Source: Marsupella aquatica
Lineage: Eukaryota; Plantae; Marchantiophyta
DNA length: 64,000 nt
Assembly (NCBI GenBank): GCA_973895155.1
Contig: OZ316899.1
Coordinates: 11,934,834 to 11,998,833 of the forward strand
Direction of reading: 5' to 3'
The notes under the pieces were generated by a model that was not told the DNA's origin, made no database searches, and saw only the letters and a program-made list of their open reading frames with translations. A program made the position numbers and the translations under genes. Of this stretch, positions 13,286 through 48,666 are shown one piece after another; position 1 is the stretch's first letter, and every line of letters starts with the position of its first letter.

Positions 13286-13866
13286 TGAGCAATCATGGAC
13301 TGCCAAGGAGGTTCATAACGATACATTTAATTAAGAGGACACCGATCCTTACTTCCTTCCTTATGTCGTGTGCATTAGTGATTAACGCAATTGTGCCTTC
13401 ATGACACAAATGTAATGAGAAGTCAGGTGAGAAAGTTCCGTGTGGTGTGGGCCCCAAGGCTTTCTCATCTAGACTGGGGATCGACGAGCTACCCACTCAT
13501 CGTAATTTTGAACTCACGACTAGTTAGTCTACGTCTCCACAGTTACGCAGGGACTTTGCAAACTGTGAGATCTTTGCAAAAGGCCGCACGGGATCCAGGA
13601 TATGTGCACCTTTCCCAAGTTTTCGAGTGTGGACTAGGCCACGAGGATTGTGGAAGCTCTTTCCGAGGGTCGGGCTTAACTCGAGAGTAAGAAGGTCGAG
13701 TCGAACGCTGGCGAACCGAGCCGGCGGAAGCTAGTTTCGGAGTAGAGATGATATTTTTGAGATTGGAAACAGGCAGGCTGTGATGGATCTCATGAGAAGA
13801 GTGGAGGGCAGGGGTCACGACGGAGTGGATGGGTCGAAATAATTGGAGTTGGTTTGGGAGGAAACA

Positions 13867-21727: not shown

Positions 21728-23289
21728 TGTTGTATGGCCGAAAGAACACAAAGTAACAATATAACCTTAAAACCTCGGAATTTGATCCCTTTAAGAACAG
21801 ATTGGAAGTAGATTGAATGATTTAATAAATTTGGATGGTTTAGAGCTCTTGCTCTAAAACTTTCAATTTCAAACAAAGAATGAAATTAACAAAACACAAG
21901 GAAAAGTTAACTCTTGAGTTATAAATCCAAAGGAAGGAGGAATCTATAAACTGATTGGTTTTAACATGCTATTGCCACTCCTTCAGGAAGGACTATGGAC
22001 TCAATATAGATAAAATTAAAACTATCAAGTCAAATCCTCTGTTTTCTTCTGGAATCATAAAGATGAAAAATAGAAGGATTCTCTTGCTCACCAAACCCAC
22101 ACTACATTTATGGCAGATTTACTGAGATATATATTATAATGCCGTCAACATGGTTTGATTGTCAACGAAACGCAAACCAAATGAAACTCTAATATACATG
22201 TCAAAATAAAACAACGGTACTATGATACTCTTAATTTGAAATTTTTCTCCTTCAATTCAAACATCTATTCTTGCATTAGCCAACGAATCTTAACACAGCA
22301 AGAAAGCTTAGCAGTGAATTCAATAGGAATCTCAAAAAGGTGTGATTAAAAATTCAGTCACCATAAGGAATCTCCTAAATTCATTCACACTTGATAACAC
22401 ATGCTTTACTTCCATACAAGATATTCTTGTTAAAATGGAAGGTGGAAAACCTATTCATAACTTCTCTTTCTAAATAAAGTTTGTCCCCAAAATGATGGAT
22501 AAACTGAGGTATCTTATAGGTGTAAACTTCTAATCGAAAAAAATTGAAGGGGTATAACTTTTCAAATCTCAATATCTAAAAGGGTAGTCTCATAAAAGAT
22601 GAAATGTGAAAAATGTAGTGCACATTTCAGAAAGCGTCGTTTGAGGCGAACGCTTCAAGAAGCGTCAATATTGACAGTAAAACTAATAAATAATTATCGT
22701 AATCTAATTTTGACTTCTAAACTAAAAGTCAGAATGAGGTGAAACATTTCTAGGGTATTCTACTACATATAATCTCAATGCTGGTAGAGTTTCAGACTTT
22801 CTAAGATGGCTAATGGCTTCAAATAAATTGGCGTAAGTGTCGCAATGTTATAGAAAGGAATAGAAAACCAAAAAAAATTCTAGGTGTCACAAGTTGGTGT
22901 ACGCTTCAGAAAGCGTCGGAAATACAGAAGAACTTTGTGGGCGCTTTAGAAAGCGTCGGCTGAAATATGAGATTTGGTCGCAGCGTCCATCTCCTAGCCT
23001 TTTGGGTGGGCGCCTTTGCAAAGCGTTGGGGTCTAAAGCTAATGATCTATGCCTCTTTTATGCAACAAGCTAATAATCTATGCTCCAAGGAAACTTCAAG
23101 AGATTCTTCAAGCCCATAGTTGTCAAATCTTCTCTCAATCACCGTCAATCATCTATACTCAATGGTATAACAATAGCGTCAATTTTTTGAGCATAATTTA
23201 CTATTCTAAAGCCATTCCATACTAATATACCTTGTAGGTATAAAATATGCCTAGCCCTGCACTCAAACTACGATATGTCCTCATGAGTG

Positions 23290-23658: not shown

Positions 23659-24739
23659 TGTCACGCCAAAAGATTCATCCTTAATTGGATTTCAGCTTAG
23701 GCGGCCATAAACTCCATTAATATTGAGGTTCAGGCAAGGAGGGACGTGCATATGATACCGTGTTCCCCTAACTTGACACTAAATGTGCCCAATCCTATTC
23801 TTACCCGTATCATAGGTATACTTTGTATTCCACCACCGGAACATACCTCAAGTTGATAGCGGGATCAACCCCGGTTTAAGGACTTCTAAGCCTTCGTGCT
23901 GTCCGCCTACAATCCGGATCCGATGATACGGGCATTTAACCCAGACTTGCAACCATTATCCGCAGCCATCACCCCGTGCGCAGCTCGTACAATGCGTTCG
24001 GCCAAGCATTCCATACATGTATACGAGACTAATGAACATAACAGCTTACACACATACAGTCTCGGTTTACACAAAGGAAATGGTGGGGAAAAACTTTCAA
24101 TTAATAAATCCGTCATATGTACATATACAGTTGACTCGACTTCTTTGAGAATAAATAGCCCAACGACAATGAGGTGTACACTACAACGGGGCCCGGCTCC
24201 GCACTTGCCCAACGAGCTTAGTTGTACCCTCACTCCACCGTACTATTCTATTCACTAAGGTCAGGACTCCCTGCACATCCGCAGATACCCAATTCAAAAC
24301 CCAAAGTCCCCCCCCGCTACCTCTACCGGCGGTGCACTAAATACTAACTAAGAGCCATGGCTAGGAGTGGTCACGTGCTCGAGTTCTAGCCCATGCTAAT
24401 CATAGCTAAACGCCAGTCCACTAAATGGCTTGTCGTTACCCTAAGATGCTATGCTAAGAAAGGTTGTCAGCACTGCTCTAACTAGTTTCGGCGCTTGTCG
24501 ATAGTGTCCTACTTCCATGGATAAACCTACGCTACTCTAAACTATCGGTGCCGCCTAATGTCTAGCCCGCTTGTTAGATCCGCCCGAGTGGGACTTGGAT
24601 CGGCCGTCTCGCTGCCTCCTCAGCCCGTCGACGTCCTACTTGAGGATCTGGACCTGGTCCATGAGAGAATCATCCTCTCTCTTCATTGCGTCTATTTCCT
24701 CCGCGGCCTCCTGGCACACCTCTTCCAATTGCTGACCGT
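23659..24739 (-). mobile_element. Truncated, diverged second copy of the large LTR-like unit at 426-4373
   Basis: Starts TGTCACG; shares GGACTTCTAAGCCTTCGTG, GGCTCCGCACTTGCCCAAC and the end of the coiled-coil ORF (GAGGATCTGGACCTGGTCC). Cut by the LTR at 24740. Confidence 0.75.
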
Positions 24740-25206
24740 TGTCGTGCGCATAAACATTGCTACACAACATACATCGCTTGTCACACATATCTAAACATAG
24801 TCACAATCAACATCACAAACATAAGAGAATGGAGTACTAGTGGAACTCCTATCCACACATGTCCAAAACCCACAATAATCATCAAGAGCAATCGAACAAC
24901 AATTGATGCCAATCAAACACACAATCCTGTCCGACGCAATCACACACTTATGTCAAGCCAAACACACCTTGCACCTCAAGGAATCCACGTTACGTACACA
25001 CAACCTAGACAGCCACACCATAGCCGCTAGAGTTTGTGCTCGAAAGGCTCAACATCAAAAGATGAGACCTTTGAGCCAACACAAAGAGATATATAACTAT
25101 CCCTCACAAACATACACTAACCCTAAAACACTTAGATAACACACATATAAAAGCCTCAAACCTACATAGTCCAATATCCTATACTACCACTCATAATGGT
25201 GTGACA
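24740..25206 (-). repeat. 467-bp LTR (TGTC...GACA), same family as the LTR beside the DNMT-Gypsy; no TSD
   Basis: Inverted TGTC/GACA termini; colinear with 27392-27844. Confidence 0.75.
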
Positions 25207-27391: not shown

Positions 27392-27982
27392 TGTCGTGCG
27401 CATACACATCGCTACATAACATATATCGCTTGTCACACATATCCAAGCATAGTCAGAATCTAACAACACAAACCTAAGAGAATGATCTACAAATGGAACC
27501 CATGTCCATACATGCCCCAAACCCACCTACTTCAATAGTGCAAATCGAACAATGATCGGTGCTAATCCAACAACGATCCAATCCGACGCGATCACACATG
27601 TATGTCAAGCCCAACGCACCTTGTGCTTCAAGGAATCCACATTACATGCACACAACCTGGTCAGCCACACCATAGCCACCAAGCTCATGCTCAAAGGCTC
27701 AACATTGAAAGATGAAGCCTTTGAGCCAACACAAGGGATAACTATCCCTCACACCAACTCAAACTAAACATAGTGCTCATATAGCACACATACAAAACCT
27801 CTATACCTAGATAGTACTTTACTACCACTCTAAATGGTGTGACAGTTGTCATGCGCATACACATCGCTACACAACATACATCGCTTGTCACACATATCCA
27901 ATCATAGTCACAATCTAACGACACAAACCTAAGAGGATGATCTACAAATGGAACCCATGTCCATACATGCCCAAAACCCACA
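27392..27982 (-). repeat. 3' LTR region: 136-bp unit (27847-27982) in tandem with a 453-bp TGTC..GACA unit (27392-27844)
   Basis: 27847-27982 repeats the first ~135 bp of 27392-27844; the PPT abuts 27982. Confidence 0.7.
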
Positions 27983-28157
27983 ATCGCCCCCCTAGTTGGA
28001 AGTGAGGTCCCCTAACTCTAGTTAGCCATGAGTTCTACAAGGTTGATATACACCTTTTTAGGTGTGAATTTCAGGAGGCCGGGTGCAAGTGAGCCTCATC
28101 GATCACCTACCTGCAATCTATATCTTCCACAAGAACACAAATGATAACTAGCTGGCA

Positions 28158-28298
28158 TCACCAGCATTGAGGACATAACCATGATCCACTAGGAATCATG
28201 TGCAAGGGTGGTGTCAAACACGGCATGTGCCATCCTCTAGAACACTGATCACAAATCAACATAGTAGCTACTCCCTGAGCAGACCCACACAACATACA
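28158..28298 (-). pseudogene. PHD finger (C4HC3) at the integrase C-terminus
   Basis: CMLC..MLICDQCSRGWHMPCLTPPL..IPSGSWLCPQC has all eight Zn ligands plus the conserved W. Confidence 0.92.
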
Positions 28299-29471
28299 CT
28301 TCAAGCCAGCATGAACATGTACCAAGCTTGGATCCACAGTACTATCAATGTTTGGAAGATGACATGGCGCACAATTACGCACATGATCCTTCCAAACTAT
28401 ACCATCACGTCCTTCCAACATAAGGACTCCATAAGACAACACTTCACGCACATGTAAGATTGTCCGCCCTGCGGTCACATCAAGCGTCGTTGGTGCTGTC
28501 TGCTACAAATAAACATAATCACCAGGATGAAATCTTCTAATCCTCGTGCGATAACCTCCTCCACAAATAGTAGCATACCACAAAGTATCACAATGTTGGG
28601 CAATAGCAAGGTTGTCAAAGGCCATGGGCATGACTCTCTCAAAAACTCATGCCCTCTCTAAACAAACCTTGACCCAAACATCTGGATCATCCAAATCCAC
28701 AATAGTTGCAACATCACGACGAATAGCTGTTGGCAAATCTGGTTCTCTACCATAGAGCAAGAAATAAGGTGAAAAGGATGCAAGTGATGCTTGTCAACTG
28801 AAATGGTAGCCCATAGCTAACCAAGGTAGTTGGAGATCCCAGTCTCCCAAATGACCAACCTGCAAGCCATACTTACGCAATCCTCTCTTCACAGTTTGTA
28901 CAACTCTCTCTGCCAATCCATCTGCTTCAAGATGATTGCGAGAAGTAGTATGATGATCAATCAGAGCTTGCTCACACAAACCCTCAAAATCTCCATGGGA
29001 TTCCGTGCCCTGATCAGTCAACACCTCAGATGGTGCTCCAAAGTGACTGAGTACTCAATCCAAAAATGTGGTAGCCACTCCTCCACTAGCTTTATCTGGC
29101 AATGCCACTAGTTCAATCCACTTGGAGAAGTGCTCCACCATAACCAAAACATACCGATTATGACGTTGGGTAAGAGGCAATGGACCATCAAAGTCCAAAC
29201 TCCATTGATATCCCAAACCCATGATTGGCAACTGATGCAACTGGGGAGTGGGAGCATTGAACGATGCCCGCGCTCGATCACAAACCACACACTTAGCTAT
29301 CAATTGTTGGACATCAGTGTGCATACCGTGCCACCAATATTGTGTCTGCAGCAAGCTATAAGTGTACTTCACCCCAAAGTGCCCTAACTCCTTGTGTGCA
29401 TGTCGCACCAAATGTACTCGTTGTAACGGTTTTGGTACAACCAACACCTTCCCATCACGTAGTACCCTCAA
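28299..29471 (-). pseudogene. Gypsy integrase (HHCC + DDE core), frameshifted
   Basis: AHKELGHFG...CVVC; WSLDF; VEHFSKW; LTDQG; ADGLAERVVQTVK. Confidence 0.92.
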
Positions 29472-29507
29472 AAGATGGTTTCCTTCCCATCAAAATCTCT
29501 TGGCTCG

Positions 29508-31287
29508 TTATAGAACCCTATCACGCTCCTTAGCATCAACATTGCCACCAATGGAGACAACATGCAAATATTCCAACACTCTCACATCGTTGTGAATATC
29601 TTGTTGTCCAAAAACTACATCACTAACATCCATATCTGAAGACTCATCATCTACTCCATCCAATGAAGTAGAGTCTACAGATCCACTACATACTGGCACC
29701 CAACAAAGGAAGGCAGATGCATGCCATCCTAGCACCATCTCCTTATCTGTCTCATCATGCCATCGACCTCCAGTCTCATCCTCTTGATTGGTACATGGAT
29801 TGCGGCTCAACCCATCCGCATCCAAATTCACTTTTCTAGGTCTATGCACAACCTGAAAATCATACTCTTGCAACAACAATGCCCATTGTGCAAGCTTCCC
29901 TCTAAGCTTGTCATACTCCATTAACCACTTGAGAGGTTGATGATCAGTGATCAAGGTGAACAATTTACTAAACAAATAGCATCTGAAATAGCAACAAAAA
30001 TGTGCCATAGCCCACACTGCCGCCAAACACTCTCCCTCATAAGAGCTGTACTTAGCCTCTACTGAATTGTTGGATCTGTTGGCATACGCCACAACAAACT
30101 CATTCCCCTCATCATCCTTCTGAGTCAACACTGCTCCAATCAGTGTGAAGCTCAAATGGTCGCCCTGAAATGGGTCTTCTCAAAATAGGTGTTGACGTCA
30201 GTCTTTCCTTCAACTCTTGGAAAGCATGCTCCTGGTCGTCTCCCCAAATCCACTCCTGGTCCAATTAAGTGAGTATAGTTAAAGGTTTAGCAAGCTGGCT
30301 AAATCCTTTAACATACCTCCTATAGTAGCTCGCCAATCCCAAGAATGCACAAACTCTGCTCACATCAGTAGGAAGAGGAATCTGTGTAATGGCCTCCACC
30401 TTAGTCTGTTGCACACCCAATCCTCCTGGGTAGATAGTATGGCCCAAATACTCAATCTTCTCTTGAAAGAACTTACACTTGCCGGGATTGAGCTTCAATC
30501 CATGTTCCCTCAATCTCTCAAACACAATCTGCAAGTATCTCTGATGTTCTTCCACAGTAAAACCCTAAACCCTAAACCCAAAATATCATCAATATAACAT
30601 CTGACAAAATCCAAACCTGCAAGGATTCAATCCATGACTCTTTGGAACTCAGCTGGTGCATTCAACCCAAATGATAAGAACAACCACTGATACAAACAAT
30701 CTTTGCCATAAGAATCAATCCCCCAGAATGTTGTCTTGGACCTGTCAGAATGCCTAATTGGCAACTGATGGTACCCCGCCCTGAGGTCCAACAAACTAAA
30801 AATCTTTGCATGCCCCACTGCATCAAAGATCTCCTTCGGTGTGGGCATGGCATATTGATCAGATTTTGCGTGACAATTAATAGGGTGGTAATTACCGCAT
30901 ATTCGCCTATCCATAAAATTGCCATGCATATCCTTCTTGGCTGGCATCACTGTGGCAGATGCATACTCCCCGTATGAAATCTCCACCAAACCAGCTTCCA
31001 ACAAATCTTGAGTTCTACTCCGGATCAATGCCCTCTCCATATCACTATATCGGTATGGTCGTCGAAAGATTGGCGCATCACTAGCCAATTCCATCTAAAT
31101 ACCAGGGCCCTTCAATGTTCCCAAATCCTTCATGCTAAATGCAAAACAATTCCAGTAACTCTTTAAGAATTGATGCATTCGACATCTCTCACCCCTTGTC
31201 AACTTAGGGCCAATTTGTGGCTCCCAACTCTCCATCAAAGCTGTGATGTCTTCCTTTGGGATTGAAGAGATAGTCGGTGGTTGCTAT
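29508..31287 (-). pseudogene. Gypsy reverse transcriptase + RNase H, disrupted
   Basis: LDLRAGYHQ, FGLNAPAEFQR, YIDD, FLGLASYYRRY, GAVLTQ, YSSYEGECLA, TDHQPL, DADGLSR. Confidence 0.93.
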
Positions 31288-32429
31288 TTAGCAACAATAG
31301 CTTTTAACTACATTGCCACCAAAGATGTGGCAAATTACAATACTGCCACTATTTTTAGAGTATTTATAATACTGCCACCCTTTTTGTATCCATGTAACCA
31401 TACAGAGAGGAAGGGTAACCATGGGTCATGTTCCATCCCGCGATGGACACTTGTTGAGTGCTGGTGCATTCCGTTTGAATGTTTCATCCCCCGACTACAA
31501 GCTCACCGTAAACCACGTCAATTTTAAACTACCCTCCAAGTCGACCTTTCAACACAGCCTGGGCAGTATCCTTTGTGCGGGAAAGTTTGTTTGTGCACTC
31601 CAACGTTAGCTGCGCAGTGGAGTTCAAGCAATCTGGGCAGTGGATCGAGTTTGACCACTCTGGGTAGTGGAGTTGAGCGCGAGCAATCTGGGCAGTAGAG
31701 TTTGAGCCATCCGGACTGTGAGCGCGAGTCCCCCCGCCAGGTAAACATGTGCATTACTTTGCTTGTACATTGTGGATGACTTTTTCACAACTTGGTTTCT
31801 CATTTTGTGACTTGAAATCCTACGAAAATTGGTGGTCGTAGGGTTTACATTAGTGTCACATAGCTCAAACGATGCAATCGCCAGTTTGCTCAGTACCGCG
31901 CACATTGCTTTCTTGTTCATTTTATTTTGTGAACTCATTTGCCACGACTCCTTGGACCACACAATAGCTGGTTCATATTCATACTCCCGCCCCCACTCCT
32001 TATAAGTCAATGCTTTGGAGACCTGTCACTCTGACTGGAATCGACCATGACCTTTAAAGCTTTGTTTTCCAGGCGCAACAAAGTTGCCTCTACTCCATCA
32101 ATTATTTACGCAACGGAGCTGCCTCTGCTCCATCGATTATTTGCGCAACGGAGCTGCCTCTGCGGAATTAATTCTTTGTGCAACGGAGCTGCCTCTACGG
32201 AATAAATTTCTGCAATAGACTTCGACAGTCGTGCAACACAGGTTGGATAGCACCTCCATCCAACCATCAATGCAGCATTTTTGGTCTTGAATCCTTGAAT
32301 GATGTAGTTCCTGAATTGTGAGGCTGAGGACTTCAGGTACTCTGCGATGAGACTTGCTCACCCTTGGTACATTGTGGTATTAGTGACTCATGTTCATGTC
32401 ATGTGCACTTTGTACGTAGCACATCCAAA

Positions 32430-33257
32430 ATGGCTGCTGCGTCTTCCAATGTTTGTGGCAAGCTTGCCAAAGTCACAAATTACAACCCACTAAAAGACAC
32501 AGTGGAATCATTGCGTAAACGGATCGATCTTGCCTTCAGGCCTCAATGGGATAGGTATGTAAACTCTTGCATTAGCTTATGCAGCCAGCTTAAATTCATT
32601 GAAGTATTGAACACATTATTCGTGTATGGTGCCTCTGTTTTTCTCTGCAACTGGTTTTCTGTGCAATGTGCACTAAGTTTGAATACTATGGAACTTTTCT
32701 TAACCATTATTTCTCTGTGCTTCTCTTTCAGGTTTCCAGTGGGCAATTCCATAGAATCTTGTTGTTTTACATCACAAGCTATGAAAGATTACATAGCAAA
32801 GTATCACATCTTTGTTGCCAATCCAAAATGGAATTGGAAGCTTGTTCAGTCCACACGGGTTGACATGACCAGGGCCTGGGTACGTCCTACTCCATTTGAG
32901 TTTTGGGCAGTGGAGGAGAGCGACAACATTGGGCGGGCATTCACTTTCCGGTTTGAGGATTGCAAAATTGGCCAACAGCAAAAGATCCAGATTGGAAATC
33001 CAGCCGAGATTTTAGGAGAAGGGGAGGTCTTCAGAGATGGTGACCTTTGCTACTGTTTCCAAGAGGAGCCTGACTGTCTGCTTGTCACTGAATTGTTCTA
33101 CCTGGAGACTATCACTGGCAAGAAAGGTTTTGTTGTGTTTGGCATTCATAAGTGGGTGCCTCAGAATGTTAAAGATTGGAAATCCACTATTTCCAACCTA
33201 CTAGCCATGCATTATTTCCATGAGCAGCCAGGAAGCTTTAAGGTGTACGAGAAGTAG
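32430..33257 (+). CDS. Intact orphan MULE accessory gene, about 216 aa after splicing 32555-32731, convergent with the transposase
   Basis: Open ORF with a Kozak-like AAAATGGC start and a GTATGT...TTTCAG intron of 177 nt; no recognisable domain. Confidence 0.55.
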   Translation: MAAASSNVCGKLAKVTNYNPLKDTVESLRKRIDLAFRPQWDRYVNSCISLCSQLKFIEVLNTLFVYGASVFLCNWFSVQCALSLNTMELFLTIISLCFSFRFPVGNSIESCCFTSQAMKDYIAKYHIFVANPKWNWKLVQSTRVDMTRAWVRPTPFEFWAVEESDNIGRAFTFRFEDCKIGQQQKIQIGNPAEILGEGEVFRDGDLCYCFQEEPDCLLVTELFYLETITGKKGFVVFGIHKWVPQNVKDWKSTISNLLAMHYFHEQPGSFKVYEK

Positions 33258-34139
33258 ATTGTAGCCTACCTTACAGGCTTCGTCATTCTCATACTATAGT
33301 GGTGTTAGAAGAATATCTCTGGCCGCATATATAGCTCAGGTAGTTTGTAGCCGCACAAACATCAGACTTTCGAGGCAGACTTTTGTTCTTACACTTGCTT
33401 TGCTGCCTCCAAGACTATTTTGACTATTGCAATGTACTATGCTTGGTCTTTTTCAATGAAACCCCAAACACTTTTGTTGTTTGTGTACGTATTTACAATG
33501 TTGTTCATATAATGAAAGTGCAAGAGTCTGTTTTTAGAGTTCTGTAATACACAGCACATCCCTGAACAGATCTTTGTGTGCCTTTGTTTTTCCATATGGT
33601 CGACTTTCATTTGCTGCATTGCCTTTGCAATGTAGTTATGCTTAGGTATTGTATGAAAGTTTATGGAATGAAGGCAAGCAAATTGTTCGTTGTTTTGTTT
33701 TCATGTTTAGAGTGATCGTCCAGATCAAAAACTGCCCACACCTTACACATAGGAGTCCATCATCCATCATCAGAGTCAATACAAATAAAGGGTAAGTGTG
33801 AAGTCCCCAGGGTGTACAAAGTAGTGAGATTGGCAAGAATTTTATCATTCATTGTCACATTCATTGCCAAAAGCAAACAACACCAGGGCCACATAAGAAC
33901 CCATGTTCACAGTCACTCTCAACAAAATGTATCTTGCCAGTCCAAAATATGTTTATGACTGTAAGCAAAATCCTTCAGAAAAACTGGCTACAAGGGCACT
34001 AAATGAACCCATTTCGAAAGGGCAAGTTAAAGATGGGCCGCTTTCATTGTCGTCCTCCATGAATGGTGCTGACTGGTTTATATCCACAATGTCATCATTG
34101 TCATCTCCATTGCCAGAATCTGATATGTCTTCAAACTCC

Positions 34140-36400
34140 TCACCACAAGTGTGAGTTCTGTCCTCTCCTGCCCATGTCCAAGTTGATCCTTCTTAAGCTG
34201 GCAAGTTCGCTTGTCATGGCCCCTTTCCTTGCAGAAACCACAGGTCCTGGGCAATCAGACCCCATCCTCCTCTGGAACCTCATCCTTGGTTTCTCAGTTG
34301 GACGTCCTCGCTTCCGCCTCTTCAAAGGTGGACCACACCATGAATCAGGGTGTAGATCATCCTTCAAAATTGCAGGAAGGCTACTACTATACGTCTGTTT
34401 GAATGAATCCATAGAACAAAATGGTGAAACAAAATCGTAATGGCGAAGATGCAATCTGGTAATAGCTCTCCAAGCATGACTACATGGAATGCCCACATCC
34501 TGCCAATCACCACACAAACATTCCTTCAGTGGCTCCAAACTGACCAAGAAATGCCTGCCACTCGAATCTGTAATTCTGACTTCCGTAGGGCTTGATGGGT
34601 CTGCAACAAGTTGAAGACCTTCCTCATGTTGATCCCTTAGTATTGCCATGATGTTCGGAGGAAATGGTGTACTTGGTCAAGTGCAAGCTAGAGGGGTACC
34701 AAAGGAGTCCCCAAGGACTAGCTCAAAAAGGAGAGGGGAAGGACTAGAAATGTCATTAAGATTTAGTTGAGCACACTCCCAAAAAGGTTGGGCACACTTT
34801 CAAACGATTGGGGGCACTGCCAACAATGTTGTGCACACTTCCAAAAAGATTGGGCACACTTCTAGAATTCCCAAACATTTGGACACACTTCCAAACATTT
34901 GGCATGCATGATCTAACCTTTCAATCTCACCAAAACAATCCTGGCCATTCCATGTAACATTTTGGTCTTTTTGTCCTCTAGTGATTGCTTTTACCAAGGA
35001 CCTATGTCCTTTTGGTGGAGAAAATGGAGATCCTTTCAGTACCCCTCTAGCTTGCACTTGACCACTTAAAGACTCTGCAAGCATCCTCTTCTCATAGTAG
35101 TGCTTCATCATGTAATCCCATATCAGATTGGATTGTTTGAAGGCCACTTCTTGTTGCTCAGCCTTCAGTGCTCGATTTGTGCTCTCAGCTTGCTGGGATG
35201 TCTTGTGGCCCCACCTAATAATGACAATGCCAATAACAACATCAAAACAAAACACTGAATTTCTCTTCAAGGAGTTGAATGACTAATGCATCAATGGGTA
35301 GGGTGTATGAAGTATGACCTGGGATAGGGCATAAATGCTCTTGAGTAATGAGATGGATAAGCAGTGTTCACAATGTACTCAAATGCTGATGGGTGCTCAT
35401 GTTCAATGCGGTCTAGCCTCCGCAAGTACTGTCTGATCCTTGTTGGCAGCATACACCAGCCCATCAAATGCTTTCCTTGCTGCCTTGTTGAAGTGGGCTT
35501 GCAAATTTTTTCCCAAGTGCCATGTGCAAAAAGCATGGAATGCTAGTGGGAAGACCTCATCCACAACATTCTGCAGTCCCTTCTCTCTATCTGAAATAAA
35601 AACAGTACAACTACGAGACAATTCTGGGATTGCATCATGCAAGCACTTCAGAAATCTCATCCAAAATTGTTCATTTTCTGACTGAACCATGCAATAAGCC
35701 CGAATCAAAACAGTGTTATTAGCATCTAACACTGTGGTTACCAATAACATCCGAGGATATGCTGACTTGGTGTGAGTGCCATCTAAAGCAACGAGCGGCC
35801 TACAGTGTGGATAAGCCTTTCGAGATGCTGAAGGACACACAAAGAGAGTTTCAAAGGATCCATTTGGTGCCGTGTAGTTTGCCACAACCCCTGGATCCCT
35901 TTGTAAAATGTGGTGACAATGACTAGGAATGAGATGGAAGGACTCCTTCTCATCACCATCTAGTCGGACAAGAGCCTTTTTCTTGGCTGTATGTCCTGTG
36001 TGACATCTGGATGCCAACTAGCCTGGGCAGTGTCCCTCAAAGAGCAAGCTCTGGTTTGTCTGTTTTTAATTAAAATGTCAAAGATCAAAGTAGCCAAGTA
36101 GTCAGATGAATTATGCATTTGCCTAATGTAATAATCTACTGCACAACAAGTATGGTGATCATTCAATTGCATAATGGTAATAGTTTCCGTCTTGGAGCTC
36201 ATAATGACTCAAATGGACCACTGACATTTCTGGGTAGGGTTTTCATGCCACCACATTTTGCATTTCCCAAGAAAACATAGTCTGTCCTTTTTGTAAGTTG
36301 TAATAACCCGTTCTGTTGCCACCCCATGCCTAACAATTGCCATCTTGACATCATCCCAACACTCAAATGTCTCACCTTTCTTTAAAGAAGCAACAACCAT
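34140..36400 (-). pseudogene. MURA-like transposase (MuDR N-terminus, MULE DDE domain, SWIM finger), disrupted
   Basis: GETFECWDDVK; ALDGTH...DANN...FISDREKGL...HAFCTWHL; SWIM CLCGDWQDVGIPCSHA. Confidence 0.9.
34675..35063. mobile_element. 389-bp MITE with 25-bp perfect TIRs and a 4-bp TSD (ACTT), inserted in the MULE transposase
   Basis: GGTCAAGTGCAAGCTAGAGGGGTAC...GTACCCCTCTAGCTTGCACTTGACC; ACTT at 34671-34674 and 35064-35067. Excision restores MLAESLS-TPFPPNIMAIL in frame. Confidence 0.9.
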
Positions 36401-37840
36401 GACTGTAGTATGTTACACCCAAAAAATTTATCCTCTGCATACACACAAAAAAAGGATGTCACAAGTCAGGCCTATATAAACAGATGGGATCAAAGCATCC
36501 ATTTTGGCGTAGTTCCCCCGCCCCCAAAAATATATATATATATATAACAAAAATGCTGAAACAGATGTCCTCAGTGCACAGAGAATATGCTCAAACAGGA
36601 AAGAGAAAAGTTTTGGCTATATATGGATAGGGGTGGGGTTGAGAGCATACCAGATACTAGGCCACGCACTTCAGAGCAAATAATAAACTGATGCCTTGAG
36701 AAATCTGACAGGAAAGATAAAATGCTCAAACATATGTCCTCAGTGTACAGAACATTATCGCAGCAAGGAATCTCCCAACTCAATCTCCAAAGCCAGGGAA
36801 CTGAATTTAAGGGGTACTAAGTTGAGATAGGTACACTAGCAGAGTCAATGTTGAGCCGTGGAAATAAATAAAAACATTTCCAAGTCAACTTTTGTGTGCA
36901 ATAGAGTGTTGGGGTAATGCTTCCGTTCCCACTTCCGCAAAAGACAAAGGCTTCCAATCAGACTAAAGAAGGCCGGAACTGAACTCATGTAGTGTTTGTG
37001 TCGACAATATTAGTTTTGATGTTGGAATGTGAATGTTGCCTACGTACTGCAACACTAAGATTGCCTGTCGAGAAGGGACCTACCAAAGACCTTGCATCAA
37101 TGCCATTATAGTACGGGATAGTTTAATACCTTTGCCTTGAAGACATCCAGGGCATAGCCAATTTTCTCATAACGGCTTCAAATGCAACTGCAGGTATCTG
37201 TGTCCTCACTATGATTTGTCTTCAGCTTGCGATCACTAAACTTCACTCGCCTGAACCACTTCGGCCTGCTTCCTTCCACTAAACACGTGATGAATGTGAA
37301 ATTCAGCTAGTCAGTAGCATTTTTGACAGAGCAAAATGTAGATAATTTTTTTGTCCTCTAGGGTGCGATTGCAAGGCGGCAAGAAGGATCGAAGCATCAT
37401 TACTAAATCCCGGGACTAAAACAGTTGGCGATGACGCTCAGGGCCTGTGCGTAGTGACTTTGCACTCATCCTTCATTCCAACCCGGCCATGAACATTCTG
37501 CCTGCAGCCATGCTTATTCAAAGGCTGCTAGGGTGATTCCCACTGATTTCTATGTTGTGTTGAAATGTCTCGCCAAACTGCAGACTATGGATGAACAACA
37601 GTCCTGCGCAGTCCGGGAGGGAGAGTCTGGCTGAACATTGGACGAAAAACTTCACCATTAACAGACCTGACAGATTATTCAGCCTACGAGGGTGAGACAC
37701 ATCAACCATGGGTTTACTCAAGTAGTCCCAAGTAACCGCATACAAAAGGGTGGCAGTATTATAAATACTCTAAAAATAGTGGCAGTATTGTAATTTGCCA
37801 CATCTTTAGTGGCAATGTAGTTAAAAGCTGTTAGCAACAA

Positions 37841-39377
37841 TTTGAGCAGTCCCAACCTGCTCAACAATCTGTCTTGCCTTGGCCAATCCTGCCATAGGTC
37901 CATGGACTGTCTGCTTGCCCCCAGTTATGGTTGCTACTGTCTTAGTAGGCCGCAAGCTCACCAATGGACGATCAGTAACACCAAAAGAGCGCATCCGCAA
38001 TTGTTTAGCTAATCCCAAGTTGATAATCCAAGTCAAGCAATTCAAATCCATGGCTTGACCAAGGACCTGGCGATGTGAACTCTTTGACACAGAGGCAACT
38101 GCAGTAGTGCCTGTCAAAAATCCCATAGCATGCTCTCTTTCATCAGCAGTAGGTTCCACTAACTGCTGTAGAGTTGTATCCCATACAAGTCCAGGCCCAC
38201 CTGCTCTGAATGCATATGAAGCAGAATGACTCACAAAAGTGGGTAATGCACAACGTGGGCAACCAACTACATTGACTACTGCCAATGGTGGTCTGTCAGG
38301 CTGGGTCACACCTTGTGCACGACGCCTTGGATCCAAAATATCATCCACCACCAAGGCTGCTAAGCAAGGAATGCTATCAAATGCTCGCTTCAACACCTCA
38401 CAAGGTAACAAATTAGTCCACCATAAGCGTGGACAATGTGCACGAGAGCCCACACGTGCAACATCCAATAACATAGCAGGTCCAATCCAAGACTTAACCT
38501 GATGAACACTGGCAATAAGTTGATGACGATCATCCCCCAATAATGGCACATTCTCCAAAATGTAGGCAGGGGAATGTGTTCGATGCATCTGAAGATGATG
38601 CTAATCCCATAACATCTCCCAAAATAATGCAGATCGTGGATCATGAAGTCCATGTCCAACTCCAGCTCTAGATTGACCTTGACATGGCCAACCTGCAATC
38701 ACCAAATCAATGGGGCCAACGCGATCCAAATGATCCGCCCCCAACAATGAAATATCAGCTGGTAATGCATGCTGATAATCACGAACGGCATCCACTGGCA
38801 ACAACTGTGGGTAACGTTCGACCAACAATGCCACATTACGTAATGAGACTCTACGTGCTGTCTCATCAGTCTCCACATACAAATAACTGCACACAAGAAT
38901 GTCGGCTTGAAGAACGACAGCCAATCCAGTGCTAATTCCACCAAATAAATCCAACAAACAAATACCCTCATGTGGATATTGCCATGCAATAGGAGTAGTA
39001 TCCAGTGGTGAAAGACTCACTGGTCCATTTGCAGTTGACTGCTCTGCTCCTGATTGCGATGTAAAAGCATGACGCCATGCATCATGTATCAATCGGGCTG
39101 CACTTTGTGGCAAGGCCTGTCCAGTAGCCCATAATGGTGTCACAACACTATCAATGGGCAATCCATGCATGAAGTGTTCCTCATGTGCCTCCTCCACCGT
39201 AGGAACATCTGTTGCATGTGTGTTACCCTCAATCAAATCATCAACTCTAGTAATCAAACTACTGAATGCTGCCAAAGACAATGGTGTAGATTTGGGGCCT
39301 CCAACAGGTCCACTAAATTGCACTAGCAATTGGCTCAATCGAGCATCTCCAGATTGCCAATCGGGTTGATACGACAC
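37841..39377 (-). pseudogene. C5 cytosine DNA methyltransferase domain (DNMT3-like) within the Gypsy pol
   Basis: Motif I LLDLFGGISTG; II VETD; IV IAGWPCQGQS (catalytic PC); VI ILENV; VIII RAHCPRLWWTNL; IX EREHAMGF..GTT; X RQVLGQAM. One in-frame TAG at 38601-38603. Confidence 0.92.
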
Positions 39378-41181
39378 CGATTCATTCCAAAAATCTTTTT
39401 GAAACGATCATACCTATGGGATTCATTCCAAAAATCGGTATGGAAAACGATCATACCACGAATCCCATAGGATAGAGTCCAGTAAGATCTTTTTAGACCG
39501 GGAGTTCCTTGGTACTCCTCAAAACTTACAGATCGTTGTCGTACACCCTTCTTTTTGGGTTTGAGTGGCACAACTAATTTTGGACCAGAACGTAAATTGA
39601 CAAATACAAGTCTACTAGTAGTAGGATTTTCTACAGTTCCTACTTGATTGCTCTGCTGGATCGATGATACTCTGGCATTCACAAATCTTGATGGTGGGAA
39701 ATTGGGGGACTGGAAATCAATGAGTAAATCTCTTGGCCGAACTTCTGATTCCGGGGGTGCACTTTGCGAAGACGAAGCACCTTTCTTCTTACTTCAAATT
39801 GGCTGGATTTTCTCAGGCATTCCTCATCTCCATTTTCCCGAATGACCTGATCAAGCTAAATATCTTCACGATTCCACTGAATCCAGGATGTGCTTAAAAG
39901 AAGCGAGGAGAGATGTGATTCATGTGGCCCAATTACATAAAAATCCAGGTGATAAATACTATCACCAATTTGAATGGGTACCGCGTTGAGTTCTCCTATA
40001 GGTTTAATTAATTGTCCATTGATCCAGAACTGTGTGTAGGTAGGTAAGATTGGTGCAAGAGCTAAGTTCTGAGCCAAGCGAGAAGATAGTAGATTGATTA
40101 TGGATCCTCTATCAATGGAGACCTCTTTAACTAAGTATCCCGCCAATCTAACCTGAGATTCAAAAGAGCTTTGAATGGACCTTGCCATCGCACTGGAGGG
40201 ATGCATTGTGGACTTAACTCCGAACATGCTTTCTCAAGGCTCAAGATCTTAAAAGTTACTAGGTCAAGACTGGGGACAATCGCCTCTCTTCCTCTCTGCG
40301 AGGTGTGCCTCTAGGTACTTCCCTCTTGCTAGATGGCTTTGTCGTGGACAACAGGCTTGTCCCGGTTTGAGTCTCCTCAGCGTTGAGGTCTAGAAGACCA
40401 CAATCCCTTGAAGCACAAGGTCGGAAAAGCTGCGCCCTTGCGTATGTGTACTGCAAAATTCAGGCAGGTGCGTTGTTTTGGAGCTGCGAGCTTCAGAACG
40501 TCAAACCTCCAAAGTTCCAGAGCGTAAGAGCGTCAAAGCACCCAAGCACAAATGGCATTGAACTCTAGAGCTTCAAAACACAAAGGCGCCAAAGCACAAA
40601 AGTGCCTTAGCTCCGTAACCGTTAGATTCCAACTCTTCGTATCTGGCACTTGTCCTCTTTGAGTTCAGTACTTCGTCACTCGTTGTCTGCACTGGGTCAC
40701 CTTCTTCTCCTGTTGCCTCGTGTTTCTCTCTGGAGAATTTCACTCGCCAAATCTGCAATGGAAATTACAATGTATCTTTCTCCGGTAATTCTCCCATTCA
40801 ACCTTAATACTACTAGATGTAAATTCGCTCCTTCCCACCAAGTTATAGACAACCAATGAACTTCGCGTCTACCTCTTACACTTAGCACCCAAGTTTGCAC
40901 ATACCTATTGCGCAGATTCCTAATGCGTAAGGATCCCAAGAATCTAATGGGTGGGGGCATTCTAAAAGGGGAAATCTTCCATCTTACTCCAAGGCTAAAC
41001 TACCTGAGCTACCATCAATTGAACAGAGAGGTTTCTAATCCTCCTTAATTTAGCCAACCTTCTTTTTGGGTGAGAAATTAAGATACATTCTGCACCCATG
41101 AGTTGTTTGGCCTTACTATCTTAGCTACTTCTATCTTCTTTCAATTTTCCTTCTTCTAATTTAGCATAGGTTCCATTCCGT
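39378..41181 (-). mobile_element. Degenerate retroelement segment with a retropepsin-like domain (39856-40227); continues at 50241-50677
   Basis: EVSIDRGSIINLLS...PIGEL..VPIQIG...LDFYV..LLLSTSW resembles an aspartic-protease fold. The segment is split by the CCGT TSD of the 41182-50240 element. Confidence 0.55.
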
Positions 41182-42845
41182 TGTCTGGGGGGGAAATGTG
41201 GTTCTTGAGGAAGCATTGGGCCTATGGCTGCTAGTGTCAAGAGAGAACTTAGGTTAAGATCATGATTACTATTCTAGACTGGGTAGCAGACACCACAATG
41301 AATGGTTATGTAGATGAAAGCACAACATCATAACCCTTTTCTCCATACCTACGGACTATTGCCTCCTTGGCAGCTACCTTGGGTCGAGTTACAAAACAAA
41401 TATCTCCCAACCACAAAGAAACGGGAGGTTCGTTGGAAGAAGGTTTGTTGAGATCCATCTCAATAAGATAAAAATTGTGCAAGCCCAATCCTGCCCATAA
41501 ACTACATAAGGGTATACAATTGGCTCTATTGAATTTAACACCACAGTTGCAAATGCTTCTCCAAAGTGAAAAGTCATATGTTGACGCATTATCTCTTTTT
41601 GGAGTACATGAATTCTAATAAGGAAAGGATTAGGGAGAGGAAGAATAGGTACTGGTCTGGGCATTAAACCCTAAACCCTAAACTATCAAATATTCCACTC
41701 AACTAATATTCATTCTAATGACAAGATATAGAATCATTCAACGAAAAGACCATTCATTTCAAACAAATACTATGCATTGAGTTAACTCTAAGTATATACA
41801 TGCAAATATTTATCTTAATAAGTTTATCTTCTTTTGAATGAAAACACTATCTGAAGGTCCAACGCATACAAACTACCACTGACTGAGCTAAGCTCCAAGC
41901 CAGCGTGCATGCGTGGGTCTACTTCATAAGGGTTTCACCCAAAAGAAGCACAGGATGTTAAGCTATTGTTGAGCACTTTGCAATTCTTTAGGACTTAATA
42001 ACCATCTCCTATCAAATGATAACGCTCTTTGAAGGTCCAACTCATACAAAATATCTTTGGCCAAGCCAAAGCTCTAAGCAAGCGTGTATGAGTGGATCTA
42101 CTTCATAAGGGTTATATTCATAGAGGAGGTCATCAAGTCCAATGGATTCTCAAGGCTTCACAACTTAGTTGATGAAAGATGGGGAGTAAGGGGAGAGAGC
42201 CCTTCTCCTCTTTATTTATAGTGCTCACACTTCAAGCACACAAATCAAACATGGCACATGGATGGAAGCCATGTGTCACACATCCAAGGCAAGTAAGTGT
42301 GCTAGTACTGTAGTTACATGAGTGGAGCAACTGTAGGCAGTACACTGTAGATCGTACATTGTAGATCGTACACTGTATCATGCATACTGTAGATCGTACA
42401 CTGTAGCATGCATACTGTAGATCGTACACTATAGCATGCATACTGTAGATCGTACACTATAGCATGCACACTGTAGGTCTTGCACTGTAGCATGCACACT
42501 GTAGGTCTTGCACTGTAGCATGCACACTGTAGGTCTTGCACTGTAGCATGCACACTGTAGATCGTACACTGTAGCATGCATACTGTAGACCGTGTACTAT
42601 AGCATGCACTCTGTAGACCGTACATTGTAGCATGCACACTGTAGATTGTACACTGTAGCATGCACACTGTAGATCGTACATTATAGCATGCATACTGTGG
42701 ATCGTACACTGTAGCATGCACACTGTAGATCGTACACTGTAGCATGCACACTATAGACTACATATAATGCAAGAATTCAAACTACTATCTTATACTACTA
42801 AGTTATACTTAGAAGGAACTTACTAAACAAAGAATCCCCATGACA
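41182..42845 (-). repeat. 3' LTR (1664 bp) with a 28-bp tandem array at about 42340-42760
   Basis: Colinear with 48667-50240; array unit CACTGTAGCATGCACACTGTAGATCGTA. Confidence 0.93.
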
Positions 42846-43003
42846 TATCACCCCTACTAAACCTGTGCAGCCTCCGGTCTGCACCATACTTAATAGTCAC
42901 CCCTACTAATCTTGTGCATCTTGTAGTCTGCACCACACTTAATAGTCACCCTTACTAATTTTGTGCATCTTCTAGTCTACCCCACACTTAATAGTCACCC
43001 CTA

Positions 43004-46000
43004 CTAACCTCTTACATATTTTGTTGAAATATTCATTGAGTGAAGTAAGAGGTTAGTAGGGGCCCTCCAATGTTGTACAAATTTCTTGATCGAGGAGTGA
43101 TCTTGTCCGAGACAGCCTTCAGAGACTAAGACCCAATCCTTTTCTTGGATTGTCTTGGGTCTCAATCGATGGGTCTTGTCAAATCGGGATTTGTTAGCCA
43201 TTCTTTTTTGCTTCAATTGTTTAATAGCGCCCTGGATCTTTGTAGGAGTGTGATCAAACTGCTCTATGCGACGAAGAATCAAATCCTCTTGAGATACACC
43301 ATCCTCCCACTCTATTGCCCTCCAACTATTAATGTCTTCTTCTATTGGCATGAGTGGAAGTTGACCATTGATCAACTCTGAAGGTGCATATCCTGTTACC
43401 GATGTGCAAGTTGTTCTGTGTGCCATAAGTGCTAGGGGAAGGAAATTTGGCCAAAATGAGATTCTTCCCTTGCATGCCTTAATCAAGGCATTCACTATTG
43501 GTTGGTGTCCCCTCTCACTCTTGCCATTACCTTCAGGATTGTAAGCAGTTGTCAATTTGAGATTCACCCTAAACTTCCTGAAAAATGTAACTGCTTCCTC
43601 TGCATTGAGCTCCCCTCTATCTGCCCTCATGCAATCAAAGCATCCATACCTTGCAATGAAGTCCTCCAATACAAATCTGCATATCGCCTCGGTCTTATTT
43701 GTTGTCAAGGCTCTACCTTCAATGTAGGAGGAGAGGTCCTCAATAGCCAAGACAAGGTACTTGGCTCCTCTTACTCCTCTCGGCATGTGTACCACATCTA
43801 CAGCCCATTGGTAGTGTAGGGAAAGAGGGTACGTGGGTTTTAGTCCATCTCTATGCTTCACCTTCGAGTAGAGTTGACACACTTTGCAAGTTTCCACATA
43901 CTTGCTTAGATCTACATACATTCCTGGCCACCAATATAGTCTTCGAATCCTTTCATAAGTAGCTTCTCGCCCCTTATGTCCTGCCACGTCGGAATCATGT
44001 AAGTCATGTAAAATTTTGTGTTTCTCTTCATCTCTACCAATGACTCTTAGAAGTATGTGCCCCTTCTTCTTTGGATGCTTCCAAAGGGATCCATCTCTTA
44101 CCATGAATTGGTAAGACTTCTTCCAAATTCTGTTGAAGTCTTGCTTACTCCATGTTGAATCTTTCTGCAACGTGGCAAGGTAACGCCCTATCTGCAACAA
44201 TTCCCCAGAATAAGCTTCCTCTTCAAACCTCAATTCCCCTTCATCTTCTCCATATGTGCTATGAAGGCACATTCCCTGGTCCTCTTCATCCCTATAGCGA
44301 GCTTGGGAAAGCATATCAGCTACTGGATTATCTCTCCCAGCAATGTGCTTTAACTCAGGATTAAACATTCTGATGAATGCTATCCATCGAAGCATTGCAA
44401 TATCTGGAGTATCACAATTGGCTATCATTCCCAGCAAGGGTAGACAATCTGTCTCCAGTATTACATTTGCTCCTATCAAATAGTCTCTTTCTTGGCAAAG
44501 TGCTACCTTTGCACCCCACAACTCTCATTTTACTTGAGGATATGCCTCTGTCTTTCTGTAAATATTTTTGCCCAAACCGTGCGGCAAACCTTTGTCCTTC
44601 CTCATCTTGCCCAACTGCCCATCCAGATGCATGAGGACTTGAGTCAATGGTCACGATTATTGGGTCAATACCATTGTACTTCAGAGGTCGTAACACTGGT
44701 GAGCTGGTCAAAGCCTCTTTCAATTGTTGCATAGCCTTTGTATGGCCTGCACTCCATACAAACCTCACATTCTTCCTTAGAAGATCATAGAGAGGTTCTG
44801 CAATGTGAGCAAAATGTGGTATCCATATTCTGTAGAAGATGCAGGCCCCAAGAAATCTCCTTACCTCTGAGGTAGTTCTGCAGTTCTCCATATCCTTGAT
44901 AGCATCCACTTTTGCTTCACATGGCCTTCTTCCATAAGGGCCACAAACTTGCCCTACTACCATGATCTCTTGTAACCCGAAAGCTGACTTCTCTCCAGAT
45001 AGAGTTACTCCTACTTCCTTGAGTCTTTGTAGAATAGCTCCCACATCTTGTAAGTGTTCCCACACAAATTGTCTTAGACCATCTCCTCTAAGTGTTTGAT
45101 CCCTCTCCTTGTACAAACACCCTTTTATGGGGATGTCATCAAGAAAAGGTCTAGTCTTCTCTGGAACAAACGGTTGCAAAATCCTATTCATGGCATTTTG
45201 CATATGGGCCACTGAGTTAGTTGCACCTTGAGGAAGGGTGCACATTCTTAACAACCCTAGTGGCGTCCTCATAGCAGTAATGTCTCTGCTATCTTGGGCA
45301 AGCTGAAACTGATCATACCCTGAGTATAAGTCCCCAATGGAGTAGATTGCTCTCCCAGCAAACTCCTCAGCAAACTCATCCACCACAGGTCCTGTGCCCA
45401 CATTCCTTATGGTGACCTTGTTTGGTGGTTGCATGTCTTGAATGAACCTTAGCTTCCCATTCTTCTTTCTCACCGTGAACCACCGATTTGAGTACGGAGC
45501 GTTTGATCTCTCAAGGATTTTGGCATCTAACTTCTCCTTGAGTAACTCCACCAACTTAGGCATCAATGCTCGTGGCACATAAATTGGCTTAAGGTCCCAA
45601 GGAACATGTGGAACAGTGAAGATTACCATTGGTGTGATCTCCCTTGGATCAGCACATCCAATCTCTCCAATGGAAAAGGAAAAGGCCTTTTCATGTTTGA
45701 TGATCATCTCCTTGAAGGCTCTTCTCTCTTCCTCTAGTAAACCCTTATCACCAATCTTTAATTTGAGCAACGTCTCCTCAGTGAATTTATGCCCAATCTT
45801 AGTACGATCTCTAAGACTTGGCTCCTCCTTTGCTCGCTTCAATATTTCCTTAGCCTCAGATGGCAAGGGAACTGCTGCAGGTCGCACCTTCTTGTCCACT
45901 GTTTTGTACTTTGTGTGTACTTCTGCAAAGTGCTCAATGTAACCATACACATCCCTTTCCACCTCCACTTCTCCTTTTTCTTCCTCAATGTCTCCAATAA

Positions 46001-46258
46001 TCTCTCGAAGAGAGGGTGGTAATCCCCTTTCCTCTAGTACTCCTTCTATTCTCTCTTCAACCTTCAACACTCCTAATGTGAACAAATCTTTTTCTTTCTT
46101 TTCCAACATCTTTTGAGCTCTCATCTTCACATCACCTTTATGAAAATAGCACACTTCACTAGTCCTACTCACACCAACAAAAGAGGAATGAACCTCCATA
46201 GACGAGACTAAAGGCTTGGCGTCCTGCCTGCTTGCTTCTCTTAGCGGGACGCCTAGTC
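43004..46258 (-). pseudogene. pol: RT, RNase H and integrase (frameshift near 44500; integrase truncated at the GPY/F region)
   Basis: DLYSGYDQF, LPQGATNS, FLDD, IDSSP, ETDCLPL, LH..AGH..CKVC, AVDVV, ADRG, GKSERGH. Confidence 0.92.
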
Positions 46259-48568: not shown

Positions 48569-48666
48569 CTTCTCCTTTGCTTCTATTTTCTATCAAGCTT
48601 CTTCTCTCATCAATATCCTTTTATCTTTGACACTAGCCTCAAGTTTCCCCAGTATGGTCGCCAACA

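Follow-up and report, generated by a model that had tools for sequence, protein, structure and literature searches.

A land-plant family of Ty3/gypsy elements with a DNMT3-like methyltransferase ahead of a conserved stop codon and with split terminal repeats

Background

The closest described relative of the element reported here is KnitGypsy-Dnmt3 of Klebsormidium nitens, a Gypsy element with a Dnmt3-like domain in its polyprotein, for which DIRS-like split repeats and purifying selection on the DNA methyltransferase (DNMT) have also been described (de Mendoza et al. 2018, PMC5890265). A recent preprint names 'streptophytes (Gypsy-DNMT3)', and the words 'Marchantia', 'land plant' and 'bryophyte' do not occur in its accessible text (10.64898/2026.05.21.726589). 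Here we analyse a stretch of 64,000 nucleotides from Marsupella aquatica (contig OZ316899.1, positions 11,934,834 to 11,998,833; hereafter the window), the minus strand of which bears what is almost certainly a copy of this kind of Ty3/gypsy element, from a family sharing the three traits just listed. Unlike the Klebsormidium element, this family forms a land-plant clade, and its DNMT closes the first open reading frame (ORF1) before a conserved stop codon, in the same frame as the reverse transcriptase (RT). Its integrase (INT) carries a PHD finger; the term 'PHD' is absent from the main text and three supplements of PMC5890265, Fig. 4c of which may show a PHD finger or an ORF break, and the polypurine tract (PPT), self-priming site, palindrome and 4-bp target-site duplication (TSD) considered below are not described in the text of that paper.

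Single parts of this architecture recur in other systems. Gypsy-7a_cRei and other PHD-bearing Chlamydomonas elements likewise have a PHD finger in a green-lineage Gypsy polyprotein, and an insertion bias to intergenic DNA has been reported for them, but the accessible account lists no cytosine methyltransferase for Gypsy-7a_cRei (10.1101/2022.06.16.496473). Tf1/sushi elements and the plant Tcn1 chromoviruses replace the tRNA primer by self-priming, as the window family may do, and resemble it in placing a histone reader at the integrase C-terminus (PMC6317226); the window family differs from Tf1 and Tcn1 in its PHD finger in place of the chromodomain, its split repeats and its DNMT. EpiLTRs, too, are long terminal repeat (LTR) elements in which a writer of DNA methylation is paired with a reader of histones, but their DNMT is described as sister to DNMT4 and their reader is a chromodomain (10.64898/2026.05.21.726589). 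An in-frame UAG followed by CAR-YYN, with a possible 3' stem, stands between coding blocks of tobacco mosaic virus (TMV) and of beet necrotic yellow vein virus (type I stops), SIRE1, murine leukaemia virus and Tca2 (as treated in PMC2754532, PMC2194720 and PMC3159437), whereas the putative leaky boundary in the window family comes after protease (PR) and DNMT, not gag or pol. Finally, the A-coding-B-A-B repeat arrangement is that of DIRS, PAT and Ngaro elements and of SymbioDIRS-Dnmt3, the last of which also has a Dnmt3-type domain. These elements use a tyrosine recombinase, whereas the window family has a DDE integrase and 4-bp TSDs; membership in the DIRS group was rejected, as domain scans gave no tyrosine recombinase.

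The domain order, the conserved stop with its context, the purifying selection, the split repeats, the TGTC...GACA ends and the 4-bp TSDs are observed. They are best explained, at a probability that we put at roughly 0.55, by a land-plant Ty3/gypsy family in which a DNMT at the end of ORF1 is made at Gag-like particle dose and pol is expressed by UAG readthrough. Two conserved features, the junction stop and the split ends, change how such an element should be read. Our literature search, with most subscription journals outside its coverage, found no paper on land-plant copies, on the leaky stop or on the circle route, and this clade of a known kind of element is apparently not yet described, as a preliminary sequence-only reading of the same DNA had suspected.

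A family of DNMT-bearing elements in land plants

The window copy encodes, in this order, the end of a protease, a linker, a DNMT3-like cytosine-5 (C5) methyltransferase, RT, RNase H (RH), INT and a PHD finger (Table 1), and has the PR-RT-RH-INT order and the YxDD, HHCC and DDE motifs of Ty3/gypsy elements. Both coding blocks reported by the sequence-only reading are present: domain matches locate RT-RH-INT-PHD at 31283-28161, and the C5-methyltransferase motifs of 37841-39377 are seen on the minus strand, with a PF00145 match. Relatives at 40-74% identity include Marchantia, Calypogeia, Riccia and Sphagnum gene models, more distant ones come from Mesostigma, Closterium and Haematococcus, and a profile search returned 472 clusters at E<=1e-30. 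Relatives sought in viral contigs were not found, and no Klebsormidium-named proteins were among those returned by protein searches. Most of the 80 metagenome loci that we retrieved as a sibling set show the order gag-PR-DNMT-RT-RH-INT-PHD, whole or in part. This identical order at dozens of loci rules out that the DNMT is a piece of an adjoining host gene, and its position between protease and RT is as first proposed.

Two domain orders exist in the family at large: the DNMT precedes RT in land plants and Closterium, and lies between RNase H and integrase in Haematococcus and many contigs. A PHD finger is present in 80 of the 92 integrase-reaching proteins of the RT-RH-DNMT-INT order and in 6/23 single-ORF proteins of the DNMT-before-RT order. 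Our RT trees, which are approximate (one quick tree, one FastTree) and were sampled through DNMT similarity, group the window element with Marchantia and the metagenome locus L015 (support 98 and 99) and link it to Closterium-containing PR-DNMT-RT elements (support 92). They also contain a 67-row DNMT clade (support 87), which because of this sampling is no proof of a single gain.

We also noticed an extra C-terminal domain in 49 stored proteins (P0028, P0030 and others, mostly of the RT-RH-DNMT-INT-PHD order), with DP(W/F)xGxG in 27 and PP(F/W) in 5 of them; these motifs are reminiscent of amino-methyltransferases, and the domain is without Pfam support. If real, the combination of DNMT3, amino-methyltransferase and PHD would be unlike the EpiLTRs as the preprint describes them (10.64898/2026.05.21.726589).

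The methyltransferase motifs I, II, IV (PCQ), VI (ENV), VIII, IX and X occur in unpermuted order; the first Arg of motif VIII is missing in the window copy only, and the catalytic motifs are near-invariant among 50 diverse DNMT sequences. In a single-sequence search against the PDB all 17 matched sequences were DNMT3A/3C, and profile E-values were 3e-18 for DNMT3A, 5e-10 for DRM-type enzymes and 3e-5 for HaeIII/HhaI. A structure model of the L015 DNMT (pLDDT 95) has a complete fold with DNMT3A/B/C as best matches (E 1e-20, TMq 0.73). By sequence, profile and fold ranking, the domain is nearer DNMT3 than DRM, DNMT2 or bacterial enzymes. Neither ADD nor DUF3444, which are joined to the methyltransferase in the host DNMT3 designs (ADD-MTase in animals, MTase-DUF3444 in plants), was found next to it in domain scans. 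Where dS can be measured, the ratio of nonsynonymous to synonymous substitution rates (dN/dS) between lineages is 0.14-0.23 for the DNMT and 0.06-0.135 for RT; values inside the young family, 0.43-0.69, agree with what decaying copies should show. Purifying selection acts on the DNMT.

A conserved stop codon between DNMT and RT

In the window copy a Mutator-like element (MULE) now separates the DNMT from RT. The MULE and one copy of its TSD together measure 6543 bp, a multiple of 3, so the DNMT and the N-terminal part of RT share a frame, and the junction restored by their removal reads as the sequence-only reading had written it. That reading had gone on to a single polyprotein frame interrupted only by TAG stops, probably derived from CAG. 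The shared frame stands, but pol has two frame breaks, some of its stops are TGA or TAA, and the stop at the junction is conserved. Of the 80 sibling loci, 45 passed our filter for spanning the junction, and three exact duplicates were dropped; among the 42 distinct junctions left, the codon at this position is TAG in 26, TAA in 14, TAC in two and CAG in none. Decay of CAG is thereby ruled out, 40 of the 42 codons being stops.

The stop is retained across the window element, L015, the L002 family and L050 despite near-saturated synonymous sites among them. The closest proteins (P0037 and P0250) terminate at the same residue as the window ORF1, and among PR-DNMT proteins without RT 19/28 end 61-131 residues past the DNMT. 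L015 has one further stop in ORF1 and none in its available pol part. The two loci with a Tyr codon at the stop position (L024, L053) share their flanks and so represent one event; Tyr has been reported as the residue inserted at TMV-type UAG. These comparisons leave us in hardly any doubt that the junction stop is a genuine conserved feature, and ORF1 would therefore comprise Gag-PR-DNMT.

The six bases 3' of the stop are CAACCC in 38 of the 42 junctions, CAACCA in two, CAACTC in one and TAGCCA in one, and the strict CAR-YYA context is found in the window and in L015. A CAR YYA context after UAG is reported to be essential for TMV readthrough and to give 6-10% in transgenic Arabidopsis, and 3' stems are reported to boost readthrough up to tenfold. 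Past the stop we predict an RNA stem of 13 pairs, with 89.7% of cells paired and two-sided change at 5 pairs; z-scores from single-sequence folding of the junction are mostly weak (the window slice was offset by one base). The TAA variants were analysed in 41 rows with enough flank (L015 and L050 excluded), merged to 31 at 98% identity. On the tree they are dispersed, with 8 changes for 10 rows, and form no clades, and they agree with the rate of background G>A change at other TAG sites; because TAA thus fits background deamination, the active codon should be TAG. Stop and context together suggest that RT-RH-INT-PHD is probably made by readthrough of the conserved UAG. If so, the amount of DNMT would equal that of Gag and, by the usual ratio, exceed that of RT and integrase about twenty-fold.

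Split repeats, priming and ends

Two equal LTRs, as expected of Ty3/gypsy elements, are not found in this family, the members of which run A-coding-B-A-B or A-coding-B. The term LTR retrotransposon in the sequence-only reading was thus right as to Ty3/gypsy and imprecise as to the LTR, the window 3' end being B1-A2-B2. The full siblings L059 and L063 are A-coding-B-A-B with TGTCA...CGACA ends. B1-A2-B2 also forms the 3' ends of L007, L035 and L070, L002 shows B1-A2 before its contig breaks off, and shorter siblings (L014, L018, L026, L029 and L036 among others) stop after B1. Six sibling loci are testable for TSDs: the two copies agree at 4/4 bases in four of these loci and at 3/4 in two; such 4-bp duplications point to the DDE integrase.

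For the 11-mer that follows A1, the best reverse-complement match (10-11 of 11) lies 29-31 nt past a TATA-like box in 8/14 loci, and shuffled A sequences gave a 10/11 match anywhere in 30 of 5000 cases. On this sequence evidence, Tf1-style self-priming is fairly likely. Repeat A contains a hairpin (region 27640-27740 of A2 in the window, 1820-1860 in L059) with compensating changes between the window family and the peat-moss-type one, where the putative self-primer is the 3' arm of this hairpin.

At the meeting point of B1 and A2 stands GACA-NN-TGTC, a perfect palindrome in 3/6 siblings. Because the PPT precedes B1, the priming site follows A1 and the palindrome lies at B1-A2, the LTR defined by reverse transcription would be B+A, with the integrated ends inside it. 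The joint A2|B2 corresponds to LTRs joined end to end. The simplest reading, which we hold only tentatively, is that an LTR circle is opened at the palindrome by the DDE integrase; foamy-virus integrase has been reported to cleave palindromic circle junctions.

The PHD finger and the role of the DNMT

The PHD finger is most similar to those of CHD4, DPF3, KDM5B, ATXR5 and UHRF1 and occupies the place of the chromodomain on the integrases of Tcn1 and Tf1. Acidic residues are usual in readers of H3K4me0, and a Trp in cages for H3K4me3; the PHD here is without this Trp, and five aligned land-plant-clade copies are without the usual acidic residues. The sequence-only reading had seen in PHD and DNMT a parallel to the ADD-plus-methyltransferase design of DNMT3. 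This parallel is weak, because the PHD follows the stop and sits at the C-terminus of the integrase, and the PHD is not an ADD equivalent. From its position, and by analogy with SymbioDIRS-Dnmt3, which methylates CG de novo in yeast (PMC5890265), the most likely role of the DNMT would be methylation of the element's cDNA, a role that we favour with some reserve.

A proposed replication cycle

We propose that the transcript starts about 30 nt past the TATA box in A1 and that its first 11 nt prime reverse transcription just after A1. Most ribosomes would halt after Gag-PR-DNMT and a few per cent would pass UAG-CAR-YYN. Priming at the PPT before B would yield [B-A]-coding-[B-A] DNA, the ends of which would join as a circle and form the A2|B2 junction. 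The DDE integrase would then cut this circle open at the GACA-NN-TGTC palindrome in one of its LTRs and insert it, so that the ends are permuted. The abundant DNMT would mark the cDNA, most likely at CG as in SymbioDIRS-Dnmt3, making it resemble host DNA, and the PHD, at the chromodomain position of chromoviruses, would tether the integrase to H3 tails.

It is a bolder and rather unlikely extension that all of these traits, capsid-level DNMT3 by a leaky stop, self-priming, a circle opened by a DDE integrase and PHD-guided insertion of pre-methylated, end-permuted DNA, characterise one old green-plant Ty3/gypsy lineage. If true, it would add, in Marchantia and Sphagnum, a third route of integration, between those of linear LTR elements and of recombinase-based DIRS elements. 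The role of retrotransposon-borne DNMTs has been a question since 2018, the one plant-lineage enzyme tested so far having given no signal in yeast. From the conserved stop the dose of the DNMT and its place (Gag-side, in particles) can be predicted, and the end structure predicts circle opening by the DDE integrase. Many gene models of the family are from Marchantia polymorpha, a genetic model with methylation mutants, so the question is directly testable. LTR-pair finders should miss such elements, and ORF1 models could pass as host DNA methyltransferase genes.

Alternative explanations

Several observations weigh against this cycle, some of them by favouring an alternative. The window copy itself cannot function. 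Strict CAR-YYA is rare, 38 of the 42 contexts being CAA-CCC; these belong to one family, which has an ATG six bases 3' of the stop, and the independent lineages are only the four named above. The predicted stem does outdo shuffled sequences on four of five measures (0, 11, 1 and 2 of 500 shuffles scored as well), but the test takes no account of relatedness among rows, its fifth measure is null (233 of 500), and the RNAalifold covariation term is just -0.88. The best self-priming match lies elsewhere or is 9/11 or less in 6/14 loci, and the evidence for it comes from siblings, A1 being missing from the window copy, with a start site placed by the TATA-like box. DNMT and RT lie within one ORF in Closterium and several other relatives, some with a PHD (P0269, P0283, P0292), and therefore a high DNMT dose is not required family-wide.

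RNA-templated split repeats have been proposed for PAT/TOC1-type DIRS elements. Here likewise the transcript might enter B2 and RT complete both ends from the internal B1-A2, with the integrase only trimming them. The short A-coding-B copies would then be products of B1-B2 recombination, by which such forms can arise. This course of events, possible if less probable than not, accounts for a one-sidedness that a symmetric circle leaves unexplained: none of about 15 loci whose 5' end is visible shows the mirror form A-B-A-coding-B. The description of the Klebsormidium repeats as DIRS-like (PMC5890265) also suits it. On its own it leaves unexplained why the PPT lies exactly at the B1 start, why the self-priming site coincides with the end of A1, and why the A2|B2 junction agrees with these two RT boundaries.

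The DNMT might instead methylate the element RNA, or host DNA in or close to the site of insertion, or be a catalytically optional DNA-binding or decoy module. CG depletion in the element (0.36-0.40) does not exceed that of its neighbours (MULE 0.38, neighbouring gypsy 0.31), although the CG/CHG depletion analysis is uninformative; KnitGypsy-Dnmt3 was inactive in yeast, a result that is inconclusive (PMC5890265); and the DNMT changes place between clades. We nevertheless consider such roles rather doubtful, given the near-invariant catalytic motifs, the complete fold and the de novo CG activity of the related SymbioDIRS-Dnmt3 (PMC5890265), and prefer cDNA methylation.

The ratio of ORF1 to pol products could also be set by RNA processing, with the TAG as a 3' splice acceptor, or pol could come from an internal promoter or from re-initiation at a nearby ATG. 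The AG in which the active codon ends might serve as acceptor, the peat-moss-type family has a T-rich stretch before the stop and an ATG at +7, and in two NCBI gene models (P0010, P0019) the DNMT is fused with RT. Tca2 is a reported precedent, according to which an in-frame stop and a predicted structure need not mean readthrough. In the window and L015, however, the sequence before TAG is purine-rich and no ATG lies at +7, the two gene models jump beyond the stop to later points, and splicing needs neither CAR-CC nor a stem. These routes are thus unlikely beside readthrough. Very improbable, and for the land-plant clade contradicted by the junction codons and by the shared ORF1 end of P0037 and P0250, is the sequence-only model of a continuous DNMT-RT-RH-INT-PHD polyprotein with decayed stops and a PHD-DNMT unit of ADD-plus-methyltransferase type. 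The frame shared after MULE removal and the single-ORF relatives would lend themselves to it, but about 1000 codons lie between PHD and DNMT, and cleavage by the protease would normally part the two.

The window copy and its surroundings

Table 1. Features of the element and of the MULE inserted in it, in window coordinates
Feature	Position	Strand	Remarks
Solo A-B repeat, separate and older family member	24740..25206	-	78% to A2-B2; TG...CA ends; without matching TSD
Repeat B2, GACA end	27392..27526	-	94% to B1; 3' end of element
Repeat A2, about 318 bp, TGTCA start	27527..27844	-	hairpin conserved with siblings
Repeat B1, about 136 bp, GACA end	27847..27983	-	2-nt spacer 27846-27845, then TGTC (degenerate palindrome)
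Polypurine tract	27984..27995	-	adjoins B1; near-identical to PPT of peat-moss-type siblings
PHD finger, Cys4-His-Cys3	28161..28298	-	integrase C-terminus; E 1.8e-10
Integrase	28400..29400	-	HHCC 29396-29280; DDE motifs SLDF 29201, TDQG 29018, AERVV 28913; several stops
RNase H	29750..30140	-	PF17917, PF17919
Reverse transcriptase	30142..31283	-	YIDD at 30596-30585; 3 internal stops
Predicted long-loop RNA stem	31180..31272	-	begins about 12 nt past stop
ORF1 stop TAG (31286-31284), then CAA CCA	31278..31286	-	UAG-CAR-YYA leaky-stop context; conserved
MULE, later insertion	31298..37830	.	terminal inverted repeats about 90 bp (89-94 bp, 97-98% identical)
MULE TSD, 10 bp	31288-31297 and 37831-37840
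MULE transposase (PF10551) and SWIM	35406-36017 and 34143-34676	-
ORF1 3' part	37841..39395	-	last aspartic protease strands, linker, DNMT3-like C5 methyltransferase (about 38990-38000), tail
C5-methyltransferase motifs		-	DLFGG 38951, YVET 38879, GWPCQ 38693, LENV 38558, VIII region 38444, IX/X 38141 and 38063
5' break point	39396..39483	-	scrambled local duplications of protease-coding DNA; unrelated DNA upstream; contig loose end at 39395

The window copy is dead: its 5' end is lost, the MULE has been inserted and stops and frameshifts are present. An A1 repeat, gag and the catalytic protease motif, with most of the protease, were sought within the window and not found. What is left of ORF1 is 73% identical to P0250 over 525 aa; the single in-frame stop within its DNMT part (38601-38603) is specific to this copy, and at 38602 contigs with the alternative letter carry the whole depth in all four public runs. 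The pol part has ten internal stops, and its frame is broken by a telomere-repeat insertion (about 30560-30580) and by a deletion (near 30133-30142). The former consists of about two TTTAGGG-type repeats directly after the YIDD of RT and is absent from sibling contigs.

Contigs of two public runs (two of X2, one of X3) jump exactly from 31287 to 37831, showing that MULE-free siblings exist. Read depth over the element parts is far above that over the MULE, depth not being equal to copy number. Inside the MULE, an insert of about 390 bp with 40-bp inverted ends (34674-35064), jumped by contigs of X1, X2 and X3, is likely a miniature inverted-repeat transposable element, and an open frame of 309 codons at 32328-33257 (+) is without Pfam match.

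Elsewhere in the window, a second gypsy element (41182-50240) is near-intact. Its LTRs measure about 1.6 kb, align at 89.5% and contain 14/28-bp tandem arrays; the ends are TG...CA, and the target duplication, CCGT, agrees with the NCGN preference that Phygy elements are reported to have. Direct repeats of 828 bp (99.6%; 54228-55055 and 61066-61893) that start with CACTAG flank around 6 kb, including a DUF4283 frame at 56553-57515. Older direct repeats (67%; 577-1488 and 23810-24741) may be LTRs that belong to a large nested element. At 21508-21885 lies a weak RT fragment of copia type, and at 12700-13300 a 35-bp tandem array.

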